DNA of 6,259 nt, from positions 1 to 6,259 of the IMG/VR virus record IMGVR_UViG_2609459844_000003, one strand, 5' to 3'. Source of the stretch: a virus. Lineage: Duplodnaviria > Heunggongvirae > Uroviricota > Caudoviricetes. Below are positions 1 through 6,259 of this stretch, piece after piece; within the stretch, counting starts at the first letter, position 1, and each line of letters begins with the position of its first letter. The notes under the pieces were generated by a model. It searched no databases, had not been told where the DNA came from, and saw only the letters and a list, made by a program, of their open reading frames with translations. Both the position numbers and the translations under genes were made by a program.

Positions 1-1263
<1,263 letters not shown>

Positions 1264-1560
1264 TAATTAATGCTTAGAACAGGATCATATACCTGTATCA
1301 GGTCAGTCCACTCTTCACCTAAACGTGCAGATGTGTTAATCCGTCTCCCTGCTTAGCACCACTCTTTTGGTGATATACCCGTTTTGGCATAGTCGGCGAG
1401 AGACTGGTGTTGCAGCACTGTCCAGTCCTGTTTTACCATAAACCCCCTAGTTTTATCTTTTAATTAATAGATATTAGTAAGATGAATCAATGATGTGCTC
1501 AGAGCAAAGCACATCCTGCGTTGCTTTTAGTGCCATTTAACCTATAGAGAGATATGACGC

Positions 1561-1806
1561 GTGAGAAAGTTAATCTGTCTAATTTCGTTCGTTGCAACAT
1601 GCGGATTCGGGTATCAGGCATACCAGCATCATGGACTGGCTTCTCTACTGGCTTTCTTAGTCAGCTTAGGGGCTTTTCTAACTGCTGTAGCCAACTTAAT
1701 AAGTGAGAAGAAGAAGTCATCCTCTATAAGCCAAGTGATTGGTAATAACTCTTCAGGAATACAAGTCAGTGGTAATTTAACCATTAATGAAAAGGACAAA
1801 AAATGA
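1561..1806 (+). CDS. hypothetical small protein with hydrophobic segments; possibly the N-terminal part of the downstream gene
   Basis: 81-codon ORF in AT-rich DNA, GTG start with only a weak AGAGAG Shine-Dalgarno-like element. One strongly hydrophobic segment (LASLLAFLVSLGAFLTAVANLI) and a weaker one before it. The stop overlaps the downstream ATG (ATGA at 1803..1806). The C-terminal GNNSSGIQVSGN motif recurs in the N-terminus of the next ORF. Confidence 0.4.
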   Translation: MRKLICLISFVATCGFGYQAYQHHGLASLLAFLVSLGAFLTAVANLISEKKKSSSISQVIGNNSSGIQVSGNLTINEKDKK

Positions 1807-2711
1807 GTCTTTTCGATCATAAGTCGGGTCAACATGTCGGAGATGGTTCTACCGCAATCCAAGTAACCGGTGATGCTATCATTGGTAATACTACTACTGA
1901 AGTAGTTACTATCTGTGAATTAGTAGTTCAAGCACAAATGGCTTCTTTAAAAGAGGAAGCATATAAACTTGTAAACCAACGAGCGATAGAATTTGGTAAT
2001 CAGATTGCAGCTAAACTTTCTAGTGACCTTGATCATAAATTAAAAGAGAAATTATCCGACCCTGACATTCAATATTCGATGAACCAAGCTGTAACTCAGG
2101 TGGCTCGAAAAGGATTTGATGAAAAATCGGAGTTACTTAAAGAGCTAATCGTTTCTAAAATTCAAACTGAAGAAGAAGAGGATAGTATAGTTATAGATCA
2201 CGCTCTTGAGGTGACATCTAAATTAACAACAAACGACATTAAATTTCTCTCTCTAATATATTACCTCAGAAACATAAATAAGATACGAAACGGTATTAAC
2301 ATGACAGCTCTTGCTGAAAGAAATGAAACTCACTTTGGATTAATTGGCTTTACCGTAGAGCAAAACCATTCAGCCCACAAAGAATACTATGCTCGCTATG
2401 ATATTGATTACATTAAATTCTTAGATAAAATAGAGTCTTTGAGAAAAATAAACATTGATCTCCTCAGCTTAAAAGGCGTTATCTTCACAGACAAGCAATA
2501 CGTAACAAACTATCAAGACCTACTTGGAAAAAGGACTGGAATCACCAGCTTTGAAAGCGATGAGATGTTCTTTGAAACATTTCCTGCTTTAAAGTTAACT
2601 CTAGATGCATTTGGCGTATCGACCATAAATGACTTTAATTCATATGTTTTAAATCCAATTGGCGACCTGATTGCTCAAAACTTTCTTCGGGCTCGGAACT
2701 TCCTTCAATAG
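1803..2711 (+). CDS. hypothetical protein, 302 aa, no recognisable family; AT-rich accessory cargo
   Basis: A 909-nt ORF in AT-rich sequence where chance ORFs are short. ATG at 1803 with AAAGGA Shine-Dalgarno 6 nt upstream. Protein is K/E/I/N-rich. I see no Walker A, HNH, DDE or obvious HEPN signature by eye. Confidence 0.8.
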   Translation: MSLFDHKSGQHVGDGSTAIQVTGDAIIGNTTTEVVTICELVVQAQMASLKEEAYKLVNQRAIEFGNQIAAKLSSDLDHKLKEKLSDPDIQYSMNQAVTQVARKGFDEKSELLKELIVSKIQTEEEEDSIVIDHALEVTSKLTTNDIKFLSLIYYLRNINKIRNGINMTALAERNETHFGLIGFTVEQNHSAHKEYYARYDIDYIKFLDKIESLRKINIDLLSLKGVIFTDKQYVTNYQDLLGKRTGITSFESDEMFFETFPALKLTLDAFGVSTINDFNSYVLNPIGDLIAQNFLRARNFLQ

Positions 2712-2745
2712 GATAAAAATTATCGTTTGTAAACATTCGACAGAA

Positions 2746-2771
2746 AAGGGTATTTTTATTAAGATACCCTT
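2746..2771. terminator. hairpin between convergent transcription units; possible weak terminator
   Basis: Perfect 8-bp inverted repeat AAGGGTAT / ATACCCTT (2746..2753 and 2764..2771) with inner pairs possible, 35 nt after the stop of the 302-aa ORF. The stem is AT-rich with only a GGG/CCC core, and there is no clean U-tract on the plus side and only a short T-rich tail on the minus side. Confidence 0.25.
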
Positions 2772-2890
2772 CAAATCCACACTTACTACAAATATATCTA
2801 TAAAAAATAATTTAATTATCGAGATACATATCATTACATGATGTAGAGCTGAAAACTATTCAGCCCAACTTACATTTATCACATTCATAT

Positions 2891-3151
2891 TCATTTAAAA
2901 TGATTTACAACCTTAACGTCTCTGTCCTTTAACTCCATAATTTTTCCTAGTTGCTTGCGTTCCAACTCAATTTTACTGATACCAGTCAGTTGGTTATTCG
3001 CCTTCTCAATAGTAGCCAGCAGCGGCCCGATCCAGAGAACAGCCTGGCAGTATGTCAGGGAGCTGGCGGTAATGGAGTCACCACCGACTGCGTCAGCGTT
3101 ACCGGTATCGGTGTGCATTGTACAAGCATTCACCGAATGCCTGCTGTACAT
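2891..3151 (-). CDS. hypothetical protein, 86 aa (questionable)
   Basis: ORF in a locally GC-richer patch directly after the 79-aa ORF. No convincing Shine-Dalgarno before the ATG at 3151. C-terminal part is charged and helical-looking. Could be real, a gene remnant or spurious. Confidence 0.3.
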   Translation of the reverse strand: MYSRHSVNACTMHTDTGNADAVGGDSITASSLTYCQAVLWIGPLLATIEKANNQLTGISKIELERKQLGKIMELKDRDVKVVNHFK

Positions 3152-3168
3152 TCTCGGAACTCATACTT

Positions 3169-3408
3169 TCAGACAAACTGTTTCCAGATGATTTTATTAA
3201 AAATAGCCTTTCCCACCTCTAGAACCAACGCTGATACAAACATATAACCTCCAATCTCAGTCAACATATTAGAGGTAGCCCCACTAACCACTAATCCTAA
3301 ACCCCCTAACAACAAAAGTCCGATACCAGCCCAGAAAAGACTAAAGCTATGTACAGTAATTGAATAAACCAAATCTGTTAAGGCAACCTTCAGTTGAAAC
3401 TTATTCAT
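3169..3408 (-). CDS. small hydrophobic membrane protein, 79 aa, unknown function
   Basis: ATG at 3408 with GGAG Shine-Dalgarno 8 nt upstream, 67 nt downstream of the Rz stop on the same strand. Contains long Gly/Leu-rich hydrophobic stretches (FSLFWAGIGLLLLGGLGLVVSGA and GGYMFVSALVLEVG), consistent with two transmembrane helices. Confidence 0.6.
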   Translation of the reverse strand: MNKFQLKVALTDLVYSITVHSFSLFWAGIGLLLLGGLGLVVSGATSNMLTEIGGYMFVSALVLEVGKAIFNKIIWKQFV

Positions 3409-3475
3409 TATACAATCTCCATCTGCATGTTGAATTCATCCATGATCGTACTCATAAGCAGGTAGAGCTTTTCCA

Positions 3476-3982
3476 TCATTTATTCCGATAATTGTGATCT
3501 GACTCTCTCACCGAGTCGTAAATGCGCTCACACGTCATTCCCGAGCGGTAGCGTTCGTCAGCAATTGCAGCATAACGTTTAGCTTCTTCTGCAAGGCTTC
3601 CGAGCATGTCGGCGAGCACTGCGGCATCGGCTCCGACTGTTTTGCGTCTGACGGCAACGGCAAGATCTGTGGTGTGCTTTGCTGCATCCAGGCGGGTGGC
3701 AAGTTTTGTTGCTTCGGTGCGCAACTGGCTAACAGTGGCAGACAGGCCAGCAACAGTGGCAGCGGCTTTGGCGGCTTTAGCTTGAGCATCTTTTACAGCC
3801 TCATCACGGGCAATAATGCGCCCTTGTTCAATCATGCGGGCCGCAGCCTGCGCGTTCGCTACCTGCGAAGATTCCGCGCTATCACGTTCCGCCCATTTCT
3901 TTTGCCAGCCCCAGTCGCTCCAGACGCTTCCGGCAATAAACGCACAAGCCACCAGCAGAAACACAGCAAATGCTTTACTCAC
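3476..3982 (-). CDS. Rz: phage i-spanin Rz (inner-membrane spanin subunit)
   Basis: Lies immediately after the endolysin. Preferred start is GTG at 3982, overlapping the endolysin TGA stop (GTGA) with GGGGGA 8 nt upstream. N-terminal transmembrane segment [20 protein letters not shown], then an Ala/Lys/Glu-rich coiled-coil-like periplasmic region. Contains an embedded +1-frame lipoprotein ORF. The track's alternative ATG at 4045 would overlap the endolysin by 66 nt and has a poor Shine-Dalgarno. Confidence 0.8.
3535..3789 (-). CDS. Rz1: phage o-spanin Rz1 (outer-membrane lipoprotein), wholly embedded in Rz in another frame
   Basis: Begins MLKLK, as lambda Rz1 does. Lipobox LLASC (signal peptidase II site) after a hydrophobic leader; proline-rich mature part with Cys residues. 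GAGG Shine-Dalgarno 9 nt upstream of the ATG at 3789. Confidence 0.75.
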
Positions 3983-4527
3983 TGATCTATCCCCCAACAC
4001 GCCAGCGCGCTTTCCTGGTCCCGGCGGATAACCTGACCATAACATCCGTCTTTCTGGCCTTTCGTCAGCCGACAGTCACGTCCACCGTCTTTAATCCACC
4101 AGCGAATAGCCTCACATGCTCCCTTGCGGTCACCGGCATTAATTCGTTTGTAGAAAGTTGACGGGAAACATTTTCCTGGACCGATGTTATAAGGACAAAA
4201 TGACGCGATACCCACTTTCTGAGGTTCGGTCAGAGACACCTTGATATTGCGTTCCACCCATGTCAGCGCTTTGTCGCGCTCAATGGAATTTACAATGTTG
4301 CACTGCGCTTTTGTTGCCGTCATCCCTTTGACGACACGCTTACCATCGATAACCGTCACGCCACGACATAACGTCCATACTCCGCCCGGATCCATCACCG
4401 CCACCAGCGTATTACCTTCTTTCTCTTCGATAAACTGATCGAACAGTACCGGTGCTGAAGCCCCGGCAGCCAATAGCGCCAGCATGGCGGCACTAAGTTT
4501 ATTTCTTGTTCCCGGAGACATGACCAT
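3979..4527 (-). CDS. R: phage endolysin, T4-lysozyme-like (GH24) with N-terminal SAR (signal-anchor-release) domain
   Basis: 182 aa. The C-terminal two thirds closely match lambdoid/Stx-prophage R lysozymes as I recall them ([70 protein letters not shown]...[19 protein letters not shown]). The N-terminus has a weakly hydrophobic Gly/Ala-rich segment [19 protein letters not shown] typical of SAR endolysins. GGAGG Shine-Dalgarno 9 nt upstream. Confidence 0.93.
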
Positions 4528-4768
4528 TAAGGCGGTCCTCCCGTTCTTTGCGCCGGTAATACCAGTTCACGGCACAGGTGATAACAGTGCAGGCAATACC
4601 GACGATGATTGCCCAGTCACTCAGGCTGAGACCTGCAATTTTGTCGACCAGCATCCACGAAACCTCTTTCGTTGAACTGGCGTAAGCCTTAGCAGAGATA
4701 CCACAGCCTGTAAGTGTTGTTCCTGTTCCATATGAAAGCCTGCTGGAAAGTGTGCTCATTCTGGCCAT
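4499..4768 (-). CDS. S: phage holin, pinholin-like (S21-type architecture) with dual-start motif
   Basis: 89 aa, overlapping the endolysin start. N-terminus M-A-R-M gives two in-frame starts separated by a positive residue (holin/antiholin arrangement); GGAGG sits 2 nt before Met1 and 11 nt before Met4. Gly/Thr-rich weak first hydrophobic segment, strong second transmembrane segment WAIIVGIACTVITCAVNWYY, highly charged C-terminus RRKEREDRL, resembling phage 21 S pinholin layout. Confidence 0.8.
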   Translation of the reverse strand: MARMSTLSSRLSYGTGTTLTGCGISAKAYASSTKEVSWMLVDKIAGLSLSDWAIIVGIACTVITCAVNWYYRRKEREDRLNGHVSGNKK

Positions 4769-4939
4769 AACCTCCCCCTGTCCGGGAGACTGTTAACCCG
4801 GTTTACGGGTGTTAAAAAAACGCTGAATACGACTTGCCCATTTGATGCTGCAGTTATTAAGCTGACTTTTCAGCCTTTGACTGACTGAAAACCGACTAAG
4901 CCGCTCGAAGGAAAACGGTACGATGATTAAGGAGCTGAA

Positions 4940-5176
4940 ATGAAGGTTTCAAAAAAAGAGTTTGAAAAATTAAAAACAAGAGTGTGCATAGCCGAGATAG
5001 CGCTTGCTTATACACTTACAGGACTGTCATCAAAGTACCCGGAATTGAAAACTTCAGTAGTTAAGGCACTAAATGCGGATGTAAAACTGAACGAGTGTAA
5101 TAATCCTGAAGCAGCCAAAGCCATCTCAGACCTCTCAAAACTGATTGATAGCTTTACTGTCGTTGGTCCGGAATAA
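4940..5176 (+). CDS. hypothetical small protein, 78 aa, opposite-strand moron between tRNA and holin
   Basis: Strong AAGGAG Shine-Dalgarno 5 nt upstream of the ATG. Looks lower in GC than the flanking lysis genes. Predicted soluble, helical and K/E-rich. No family recognised. Confidence 0.6.
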   Translation: MKVSKKEFEKLKTRVCIAEIALAYTLTGLSSKYPELKTSVVKALNADVKLNECNNPEAAKAISDLSKLIDSFTVVGPE

Positions 5177-5263
5177 ACTCTTTCCGATAAATTCGTGGTG
5201 TTTCGACGTGTCACCAGGGATTCATACAGTTAGCTCAGAAGGCCGATGCTCTCCAGTGATGGA

Positions 5264-5340
5264 TGGTGGCCCTTGCCGGACTTGAACCAGCGACCAGGCG
5301 ATTATGAGTCGCACGCTCTGACCAACTGAGCTAAAGGGCC
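5264..5340 (-). tRNA. ileZ: tRNA with anticodon CAU, most like tRNA-Ile2 (lysidine-modified) of lambdoid/Stx prophages; may be annotated tRNA-Met
   Basis: Minus strand 5'-GGCCCTTTAGCTCAGTTGGTCAGAGCGTGCGACTCATAATCGCCTGGTCGCTGGTTCAAGTCCGGCAAGGGCCACCA-3', 77 nt. Folded by hand: 7-bp acceptor stem GGCCCTT/AAGGGCC, D-arm GCTC/GAGC, anticodon loop CTCATAA (CAT), T-arm GCTGG/CCGGC with TTCAAGT loop, encoded CCA. Anticodon arm resembles E. coli ileX-type tRNA. Confidence 0.9.
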
Positions 5341-5396
5341 CTGACGCTGCGGTGCCGGACCGCTATTATTCCGGTAGATTGCGCGCTGATACACAA

Positions 5397-5421
5397 TGAA
5401 CCGCCCCGGGAATCCTGGAGA
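5397..5421 (+). repeat. IS629 left terminal inverted repeat (IRL)
   Basis: Begins with the TG dinucleotide typical of IS3-family termini, 54 nt upstream of orfA. The exact IR length cannot be set without the right end. Confidence 0.55.
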
Positions 5422-5450
5422 CTAAACTTCCTGAGAAAGAGGTAAACAGG

Positions 5451-5777
5451 ATGACTAAAAATACTCGTTTTTCCCCCGAAGTCCGTCAACGGGCAGTCCG
5501 TATGGTTCTGGAAAGTCAGAGCGAATATGACTCACAATGGGCGACAATTTGTTCCATTGCTCCAAAGATTGGCTGTACGCCGGAGACTCTGCGTGTCTGG
5601 GTTCGCCAGCATGAGCGGGATACCGGGGGCGGTGATGGAGGGCTCACCACCGCTGAACGTCAGCGTCTGAAAGAGCTGGAACGTGAAAATCGTGAACTGC
5701 GCCGCAGTAACGATATCCTTCGCCAGGCTTCCGCTTATTTTGCGAAGGCGGAGTTCGACCGCCTCTGGAAAAAGTGA
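5451..5777 (+). CDS. IS629 transposase OrfA, 108 aa
   Basis: [108 protein letters not shown] is near-identical to IS629/IS1203 OrfA from memory. GAGG Shine-Dalgarno 8 nt upstream. Confidence 0.95.
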
Positions 5778-6259
5778 TGCCACTGCTGGATAAGCTGCGT
5801 AAGCTGTACGGGGTCGGACCGGTATGCAGTGAACTACATATTGCCCCGTCAACGTATTACCACTGTCAGCAACAGCGACATCATCCGGATAAACGCAGTG
5901 CCCGTGCGCAGCGCGATGACTGGCTGAAGAAAGAGATACAGCGCGTATACGATGAAAATCACAAGGTATACGGTGTGCGTAAAGTCTGGCGTCAGTTGTT
6001 ACGGGAAGGTATCAGAGTGGCCAGATGCACTGTGGCACGTCTCATGGCGGTTATGGGACTTGCCGGTGTTCTCCGGGGTAAAAAGGTCCGTACGACCATC
6101 AGCCGGAAAGCCGTTGCCGCAGGCGACCGCGTAAACCGTCAGTTCGTGGCAGAACGACCTGACCAGCTGTGGGTGGCTGATTTTACTTACGTCAGCACAT
6201 GGCGGGGCTTCGTCTATGTGGCGTTCATCATTGATGTGTTTGCCGGATACATCGTGGGG
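5777..6259 (+). CDS. IS629 transposase OrfB (DDE domain), 5' part only; -1 frame relative to orfA
   Basis: ATG at 5777 overlaps the orfA stop (TGATG), with an AAAAAG run at 5769..5774. Translation [99 protein letters not shown]...QLWVADFTYVSTWRGFVYVAFIIDVFAGYIVG is open to the window end. Missing from the ORF track because it has no stop in the window. Confidence 0.9.
   Translation, partial: MPLLDKLRKLYGVGPVCSELHIAPSTYYHCQQQRHHPDKRSARAQRDDWLKKEIQRVYDENHKVYGVRKVWRQLLREGIRVARCTVARLMAVMGLAGVLRGKKVRTTISRKAVAAGDRVNRQFVAERPDQLWVADFTYVSTWRGFVYVAFIIDVFAGYIVG

Follow-up and report, generated by a model that had tools for sequence, protein, structure and literature searches.

The window, a stretch of DNA of 6,259 bp analyzed here at its full length, carries a 4.16-kb piece that appears to be all that survives of a prophage on its contig, running from a tRNA gene to a gene for a 302-aa protein and bounded by IS629 on one side and an ISCfr6-family element on the other. 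Comparison with related prophage sequences leads us to favor, with a probability of about 60%, a reading in which this fragment is an orphaned prophage remnant whose upstream region was lost by IS-associated deletion. The antiterminator gene Q and the late promoter, ~2.8 kb further upstream, would most likely have been removed in this lineage, and the tRNA and lysis cassette would then persist as a remnant without their native late promoter.

A prophage fragment between two insertion sequences

The window is the exact reverse complement of an entire 6259-bp draft contig, JNPF01000094.1 (GCA_000703525.1, E. coli 2-156-04_S3_C1). Both contig ends lie inside IS3-family elements, and the record holds nothing past 6259. 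The contig stops inside both IS copies because these are multi-copy repeats, at which the assembler breaks. What a preliminary description of this DNA took for a replacement of the Q side by IS629 is partly an effect of the contig end, and a deletion should not be read from an IS at the end of a contig unless the far junction is known.

The prophage fragment between the two elements (Table 1) is well matched in draft genomes. Window 1233-5397 corresponds to positions 13295-9131 of L001, one of four IS-free draft assemblies (L001-L004) in which this stretch recurs with 1-2 substitutions (99.95% identity); the SNP at 2027, specific to the window, is synonymous. Nothing closer than 72-78% to the fragment was found in E. 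coli complete genomes or in the phage collection. The tRNA lies upstream of the holin, endolysin and spanin genes on the same strand, as in a lambdoid late region.

Table 1. Features of the window and of the IS-free relative L001 (positions in L001 carry its name)
Feature	Position	Strand	Remarks
IS3-like element, 'ISCfr6 family' in RefSeq record	1-1232	(-)	~20 bp missing at contig start
orfA of ISCfr6-family element	849-1196	(-)	
Prophage fragment, 4164 bp	1233-5396	(-)	collinear with L001 13295-9132
302-aa LPO_1073/Vpar_1526-family protein, 35% GC	1803-2711	(+)	PHROG of unknown function
Small ORF, 80-86 aa	2891-3151	(-)	
Small ORF, 79 aa	3169-3408	(-)	
DUF2514 / Rz-like spanin	3476-4045	(-)	Pfam PF10721, E = 2.6e-43; PHROG Rz-like spanin
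Embedded out-of-frame 84-aa ORF in DUF2514/Rz-like gene	3535-3789	(-)	
Phage lysozyme (endolysin)	3979-4527	(-)	Pfam PF00959, E = 1.2e-20
Holin, P21 S / HP1 class II type	4499-4768	(-)	Pfam PF16080, PF04971; PHROG holin
ORF, 78 aa, convergent with tRNA, AAGGAG upstream	4940-5176	(+)	called gene in all relatives
tRNA, anticodon CAU, tRNA-Ile2 (ileX/ileY/ileZ) type, encoded CCA	5264-5340	(-)	ARAGORN and Rfam tRNA
Spacer, tRNA 5' flank to IS629, 56 bp	5341-5396	(-)	identical to part of doxX-tRNA spacer in IS-free relatives
IS629, bases 1-863 of 1310, cut by contig end	5397-6259	(+)	annotated IS629 boundaries
IS629 orfA	5451-5777	(+)	ORF/gene call
IS3-family frameshift pseudoknot, Rfam ALIL	5732-5848		116 bits; within IS629
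Early genes	L001 upstream of 5779		
Q-like antiterminator	L001 5779-6333		Pfam DUF1133, marginal Phage_antitermQ; PHROG 'anti-termination protein Q-like'
Promoter-like TTGACT-18-TATATT	L001 6330-6359		overlaps Q-like gene stop codon
Rfam c4-a1b1	L001 6353-6405		
Rfam isrK	L001 6366-6441		
Terminator	L001 6421-6436		
Rfam C4	L001 6469-6554		
ORF6N anti-repressor	L001 6602-7165		
Rfam STnc100	L001 7616-7793		
doxX	L001 8362-8796		
tRNA	L001 9188-9264		
78-aa ORF (opposite strand), then holin, lysozyme, DUF2514 spanin	L001 past tRNA		
Two small ORFs, 302-aa Vpar_1526-family gene (opposite strand), HNH endonuclease and terminase genes	L001 further on		

Window 5397-6259 is 98.7% identical to an 'IS3 family IS629' of the Stx2a phage LC567824.1 (1310 bp; its base 1 aligns with 5397), against a threshold of at least 98% identity to annotated IS629, and the IS629 terminal sequence TGAACCGCCCC is present. 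The element has orfA and orfB with a programmed -1 frameshift signal, the ALIL pseudoknot. The orfB reading frame is incomplete and runs off the window end; its fragment has HTH_21 and rve domains, and HTH_Tnp_1 is also found in the IS629 gene calls. IS629 turns its left end (IRL) to the tRNA, and the transposase genes read away from the tRNA. As had been described, the element begins 56 bp upstream of the tRNA, the first base of the IRL being 5397.

At the opposite end of the fragment, the transposase-upstream end of the ISCfr6-family element faces the prophage DNA, with the junction at 1232/1233. Copies 99.8% identical to this element occur in many E. coli genomes. It leaves the lysis genes on one side and the terminase and head genes on the other. 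Within the 5' portion of its orfA, the Rfam family isrC (the Salmonella 'Hfq binding RNA') has a full-length match (1042-1164, minus strand, 150 bits), and the isrC family seems to coincide with the transposase leader and 5' coding region of an IS.

The neighborhood of this junction is also broken elsewhere. The contigs of several otherwise IS-free relatives (L003, L004, L016, L020 and L022) end near L001 13778, and the final 51 bases of L015 (15442-15492) are the same as window 1-51, which points to an independent insertion event ~480 bp from the window site, in which the same ISCfr6-family element took the opposite orientation. Many lysozyme-bearing contigs of 2-5 kb were considered as candidates for sharing the window arrangement; L022, one of them, does not share it and breaks inside the tRNA and at L001 13778.

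Several small genes accompany the lysis cassette. Within the DUF2514/Rz-like gene, the N-terminus of the embedded 84-aa ORF resembles a lipoprotein signal with a lipobox, and this ORF probably encodes an Rz1-type outer-membrane spanin. Neither the 78-aa ORF nor the 79-aa ORF has a family match in Pfam or PHROG. The gene for the 302-aa protein is probably a mobile cargo gene because of its low GC content and its location on the opposite strand. Copies more than 90% identical to it are named in Citrobacter and Enterobacter genomes. The 78-aa ORF has a strong Shine-Dalgarno sequence. In the relatives, the terminator for the strand of this ORF lies beyond the tRNA, just after doxX (L001 8853-8872, minus strand). 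In the window, IS629 precedes the position of this terminator, and transcripts reading through from the 78-aa gene would then run into IS629, sense to its transposase.

The late region of IS-free relatives

The preliminary description expected Q and the late promoter at the site that IS629 occupies. In the IS-free relatives, the insertion point is L001 9131/9132, in the 391 bp that separate doxX from the tRNA. The end of the Q-like gene and the tRNA downstream of it are 2854 bp apart, with the isrK/C4/anti-repressor module, STnc100 and doxX between them. The comparison bears out the anticipated order of antiterminator, then cargo and tRNA, then lysis genes, but not a Q/pR' adjoining the insertion point. 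The tRNA of the intact relatives lies among the cargo genes of a late region of lambdoid, Gifsy-1-like layout, in which the order, judged by family matches, is Q-like antiterminator, isrK-matching promoter/terminator, C4 RNA and anti-repressor, doxX, tRNA, and then holin, lysozyme and spanin.

The likeness to the antQ-isrK-orf45-anrP region of Gifsy-1 in Salmonella lies in the succession of a Q-like gene, an isrK match and an ORF6N anti-repressor in the IS-free relatives; the order antQ-isrK-anrP has been described for Gifsy-1 (PMC4825925). Unlike Gifsy-1, the IS-free relatives have C4 and c4-a1b1 matches between isrK and the anti-repressor. The whole module is absent from the window, and in the relatives it is recognized by family matches only. 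L001 6330-7793 joins a Gifsy-1-like antQ-isrK-anrP module with a P1-type C4 RNA.

A second point of reference is phage 933W, whose annotated record places ileZ between Q/pR' and the stx/lysis genes, just as the preliminary description had said of such phages. Its ileZ-argN-argO cluster (between Q/pR' and stx2) resembles our case in that the tRNA is of the same type (92% identical) and follows the antiterminator and precedes the lysis genes on the same strand; moreover, a tRNA-Arg(UCU) stands beside the CAU tRNA in Salmonella relatives of the window prophage. It differs in other respects. The tRNA in the window is alone, and in the relatives it lies 2.85 kb from the Q-like gene, versus ~440 bp in 933W. 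The holin is of the P21/HP1 type and the spanin of the DUF2514 type, in a cassette whose identity to any E. coli or phage record is only 72-78%, and nothing like the annotated 933W pT promoter was found here. There are no stx genes in the window or the relatives, and outside IS629 only the tRNA matches Stx phages (~90%). We do not class this prophage among the Stx-converting phages.

Deletion or simple insertion at IS629

What lies, or once lay, beyond IS629 is addressed by two metagenome sequences. Over window 1161-5467 (4307 bp), both IS junctions included, the JGI metagenome contig L025 shows 100% identity. The IS-prophage-IS arrangement is real, because both junctions recur in L025. Short-read assembly can mis-join contigs at terminal repeats, and the fragment with its two IS copies might on that ground be taken for an assembly chimera; with both junctions found base for base in the independent JGI contig, and the left junction also in the ENA metagenome scaffold L023, we regard this as next to impossible.

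To tally losses, 90%-identity protein clusters were scored for JGI/IMG-sourced sequence, with all cluster members read. The flanking set of 20 genes ran on one side from the repressor to doxX, taking in the Q-like gene and the anti-repressor, and took in the 77-aa ORF, HNH, TerS and TerL on the other. A JGI/IMG-sourced member was found for 7/7 fragment genes versus 0/20 flanking prophage genes (Fisher p = 1e-6, although in effect one contig is set against two or three hypothetical ones in a single metagenome). L025 ends exactly at the IS boundaries, which implies that coverage was adequate and hence that flanking prophage DNA, if present, should have assembled. We take this as moderate evidence that the organism behind L025 lacks the rest of the prophage. 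The 7-versus-0 tally concerns that organism, which has the identical contig, and not the NCBI strain.

The scaffold L023 has the left IS junction (L001 13295) as in the window, with 3 substitutions in 4220 bp. In this scaffold (1-53, 4390-4444), the left end of IS629 abuts L001 8960, not 9132, in the same orientation and 171 bp further from the tRNA. This pair of junctions suggests deletions anchored at the IS629 end: a single IS629 with end-anchored deletions would account for both the shared orientation and the proximity of the two junctions, no coincidence being needed. The junctions may instead reflect two independent IS629 insertions 171 bp apart. That would need a hot spot, for which there is a parallel in the two insertions of the other IS type into this prophage, at L001 13295 and ~13778.

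Such a role for IS629 would have precedent. IS629 copies sit inside many Stx and other prophages of E. coli, and IS629 is reported to lie behind many polymorphisms with gene inactivation and genomic deletions (PMC9943667). Our case differs in that the IS629 copy is found in a commensal, non-O157 E. coli and in a prophage of another type, and the deletion mechanism proposed here draws on two junction variants only.

The reading to be weighed against deletion is a simple insertion of IS629 in an otherwise complete prophage, in which doxX, the anti-repressor and the Q-like gene would follow directly past the IS on another contig. The near junction falls exactly at the IS629 terminus and its flank is collinear with the relatives to the last base, as a simple insertion would have it, and the end of the contig inside the IS marks a break in the assembly and does not speak for deletion. 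Set against this are the lack of any of the 20 flanking genes in the data source with the identical IS-bracketed contig, the IS629 end 171 bp away in L023, and the second IS at 1232/1233, by which the late region is broken as well. We consider a simple insertion possible but doubtful.

The claim that Q was either displaced beyond the IS or deleted thus fares differently in its two parts: Q was not to be expected at the insertion point, and its loss in the lineage is most likely, given the 0/20 flanking genes and the L023 junction. The accompanying view of a defective prophage with an orphaned lysis cassette is probably correct, by the indirect route of the second IS at 1232/1233 and the absence of the flanking genes from the data source of L025.

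Searches for the source or the far junction were negative within their scope. A scan of genome contigs with the 46-bp tRNA spacer gave no match, and a scan of viral contigs gave only L005, a mosaic IS-free relative. No IS629 right-end junction was found among contigs with DoxX variants, the ends of which lie in the tRNA itself or in unrelated DNA. Among the cluster representatives that the search returned, the closest chromosomal homologues of DoxX were those of Citrobacter (~75% identity).

Transcription of the tRNA and lysis genes

In the intact relatives, no promoter-like site was seen between doxX and the tRNA. The tRNA and lysis genes probably depend on upstream transcription, presumably a Q-dependent late transcript. 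If the upstream region is gone, the lysis cassette and the tRNA have lost their promoter. If the insertion is a simple one, read-through of the IS by Q-modified polymerase is expected. Q-modified RNA polymerase of lambdoid phages resists terminators, and IS629 has just one weak terminator-like site, on its antisense strand, such that the polymerase could cross the 1.3-kb element and leave the tRNA and lysis genes inducible. This outcome is tied to a complete prophage beyond the IS, and the absent flanking genes, the shifted IS629 end of L023 and the second IS make it, too, a tentative prospect.

Outward transcription from IS629, raised earlier as a possible driver of the lysis cassette, could in principle serve both the cassette and the tRNA. 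The sole basis for this is the general precedent of IS-created promoters, and the proposal found nothing in its favor in our consensus scans: there is no sigma-70-like promoter on the tRNA strand of 5341-6259 and no promoter-like site on either strand of the full IS629. Furthermore, it is the IRL that faces the tRNA, and in IS3-family elements the IRL holds the inward -10 of the junction promoter, not an outward -35. We judge such a promoter to be very unlikely.

All of the components described here are of known kinds, namely ileZ-like phage tRNAs, IS629 in prophages and Gifsy-1-like antiterminator modules, and the locus has little import beyond annotation. Should the reading as an orphaned remnant be true, it would add one more case of IS-driven prophage decay in commensal E. 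coli.

Identity of the CAU tRNA

ARAGORN finds a single 77-nt tRNA in the window, on the minus strand with anticodon CAT, and the Rfam tRNA family matches at 5267-5340 (minus strand, 67.4 bits, E = 1.6e-13). For typing, the gene was aligned to reference genes from annotated records and differences were scored over 77 positions. It differs from K-12 ileY and from 933W ileZ at 6/77 positions each (92% identity) and from K-12 ileX at 8/77 (90%), versus 25/77 for elongator metT/metU (67% identity to metT) and 31/77 for initiator metV (60%). In the acceptor stem, GGCCCUU/AAGGGCC, it does not differ from ileY. The alignment places both C4:G69 and C5:G68 in the window tRNA, where metT has U4:A69 and A5:U68 instead; these two pairs are the main identity elements for E. 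coli TilS (PMC11947777). Because the differences to ileY, ileZ and ileX are few and the TilS identity pairs are kept, we assign the tRNA by sequence to the tRNA-Ile2 type and not to tRNA-Met, which upholds its earlier designation as an ileZ-type tRNA-Ile2 on the minus strand. Host TilS would be predicted to turn the CAU anticodon into lysidine-AU, such that the rare isoleucine codon AUA is read.

ARAGORN itself labels the gene tRNA-Met, from the anticodon alone, and many records annotate related phage tRNAs in the same way, so an elongator or initiator tRNA-Met that does not read AUA has to be considered. The distances to metT and metV, set beside those to ileY and ileZ, together with an ileY-identical acceptor stem that holds the E. 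coli TilS pairs and the annotation of 933W ileZ as an AUA reader, make this highly improbable. More generally, where software labels a CAU tRNA 'tRNA-Met', the identity pairs of the acceptor stem can assign it to tRNA-Ile2. The window tRNA shares with the lysidine34-bearing ileX/ileY of E. coli the acceptor stem of ileY, the anticodon loop and the TilS identity pairs. It departs from them in being phage-borne, in one additional D-loop base, in a U51-G63 wobble in the T stem and in a 27:43 mismatch, the last of which is shared with ileZ.

Rare codons and the role of the tRNA

In E. coli overall, AUA makes up ~4 per 1000 codons and ~7% of isoleucine codons. In this prophage type (28 genes), AUA accounts for 13.6 per 1000 codons and 23% of isoleucine codons, and its use is highest in low-GC cargo genes (46 per 1000 in a 345-aa ORF, 30 per 1000 in the 302-aa ORF). 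In the Salmonella relatives L012 and L013, a tRNA-Arg(UCU) and a tRNA-Gly(UCC) directly follow the CAU tRNA (10827-11059); of this Salmonella-type trio, the E. coli lineage retains the first tRNA only. The AUA richness of the prophage genes and the presence of tRNA-Arg and tRNA-Gly in the Salmonella relatives support a role in AUA decoding, and the sequence data fit the usual function of rare-codon supply.

It is conceivable, though we think it unlikely, that the remnant is under selection, with the tRNA-Ile2 copy or the neighboring cargo genes perhaps domesticated by the host. Under such selection, the IS629-anchored deletions from the Q side (to L001 8960 in L023 and 9132 in the window) would halt before the tRNA, a speculative account of the two endpoints to which we give little weight. 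If it were true, a domesticated tRNA-Ile2 might, for example, decode AUA-rich horizontally acquired genes.

The tRNA as a module boundary

Homology with five mosaic relatives (L005, L012, L013, L014 and L018) stops exactly at the 3' end of the tRNA (L001 9264, window 5264), and past this point the mosaic relatives have another holin and lysis module. The tRNA of the window lineage differs from that of the mosaic relatives at two positions in its 3' half, one in the variable loop and one in the T stem (U-G for U-A). These alignments make the tRNA look like a recombination boundary in lambdoid prophages, with the antiterminator/cargo module on one side and alternative lysis modules on the other. 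Two short-read contigs, L017 and L022, break inside the tRNA sequence, which suggests that this tRNA is present more than once in their genomes, for instance because several lambdoid prophages carry it.
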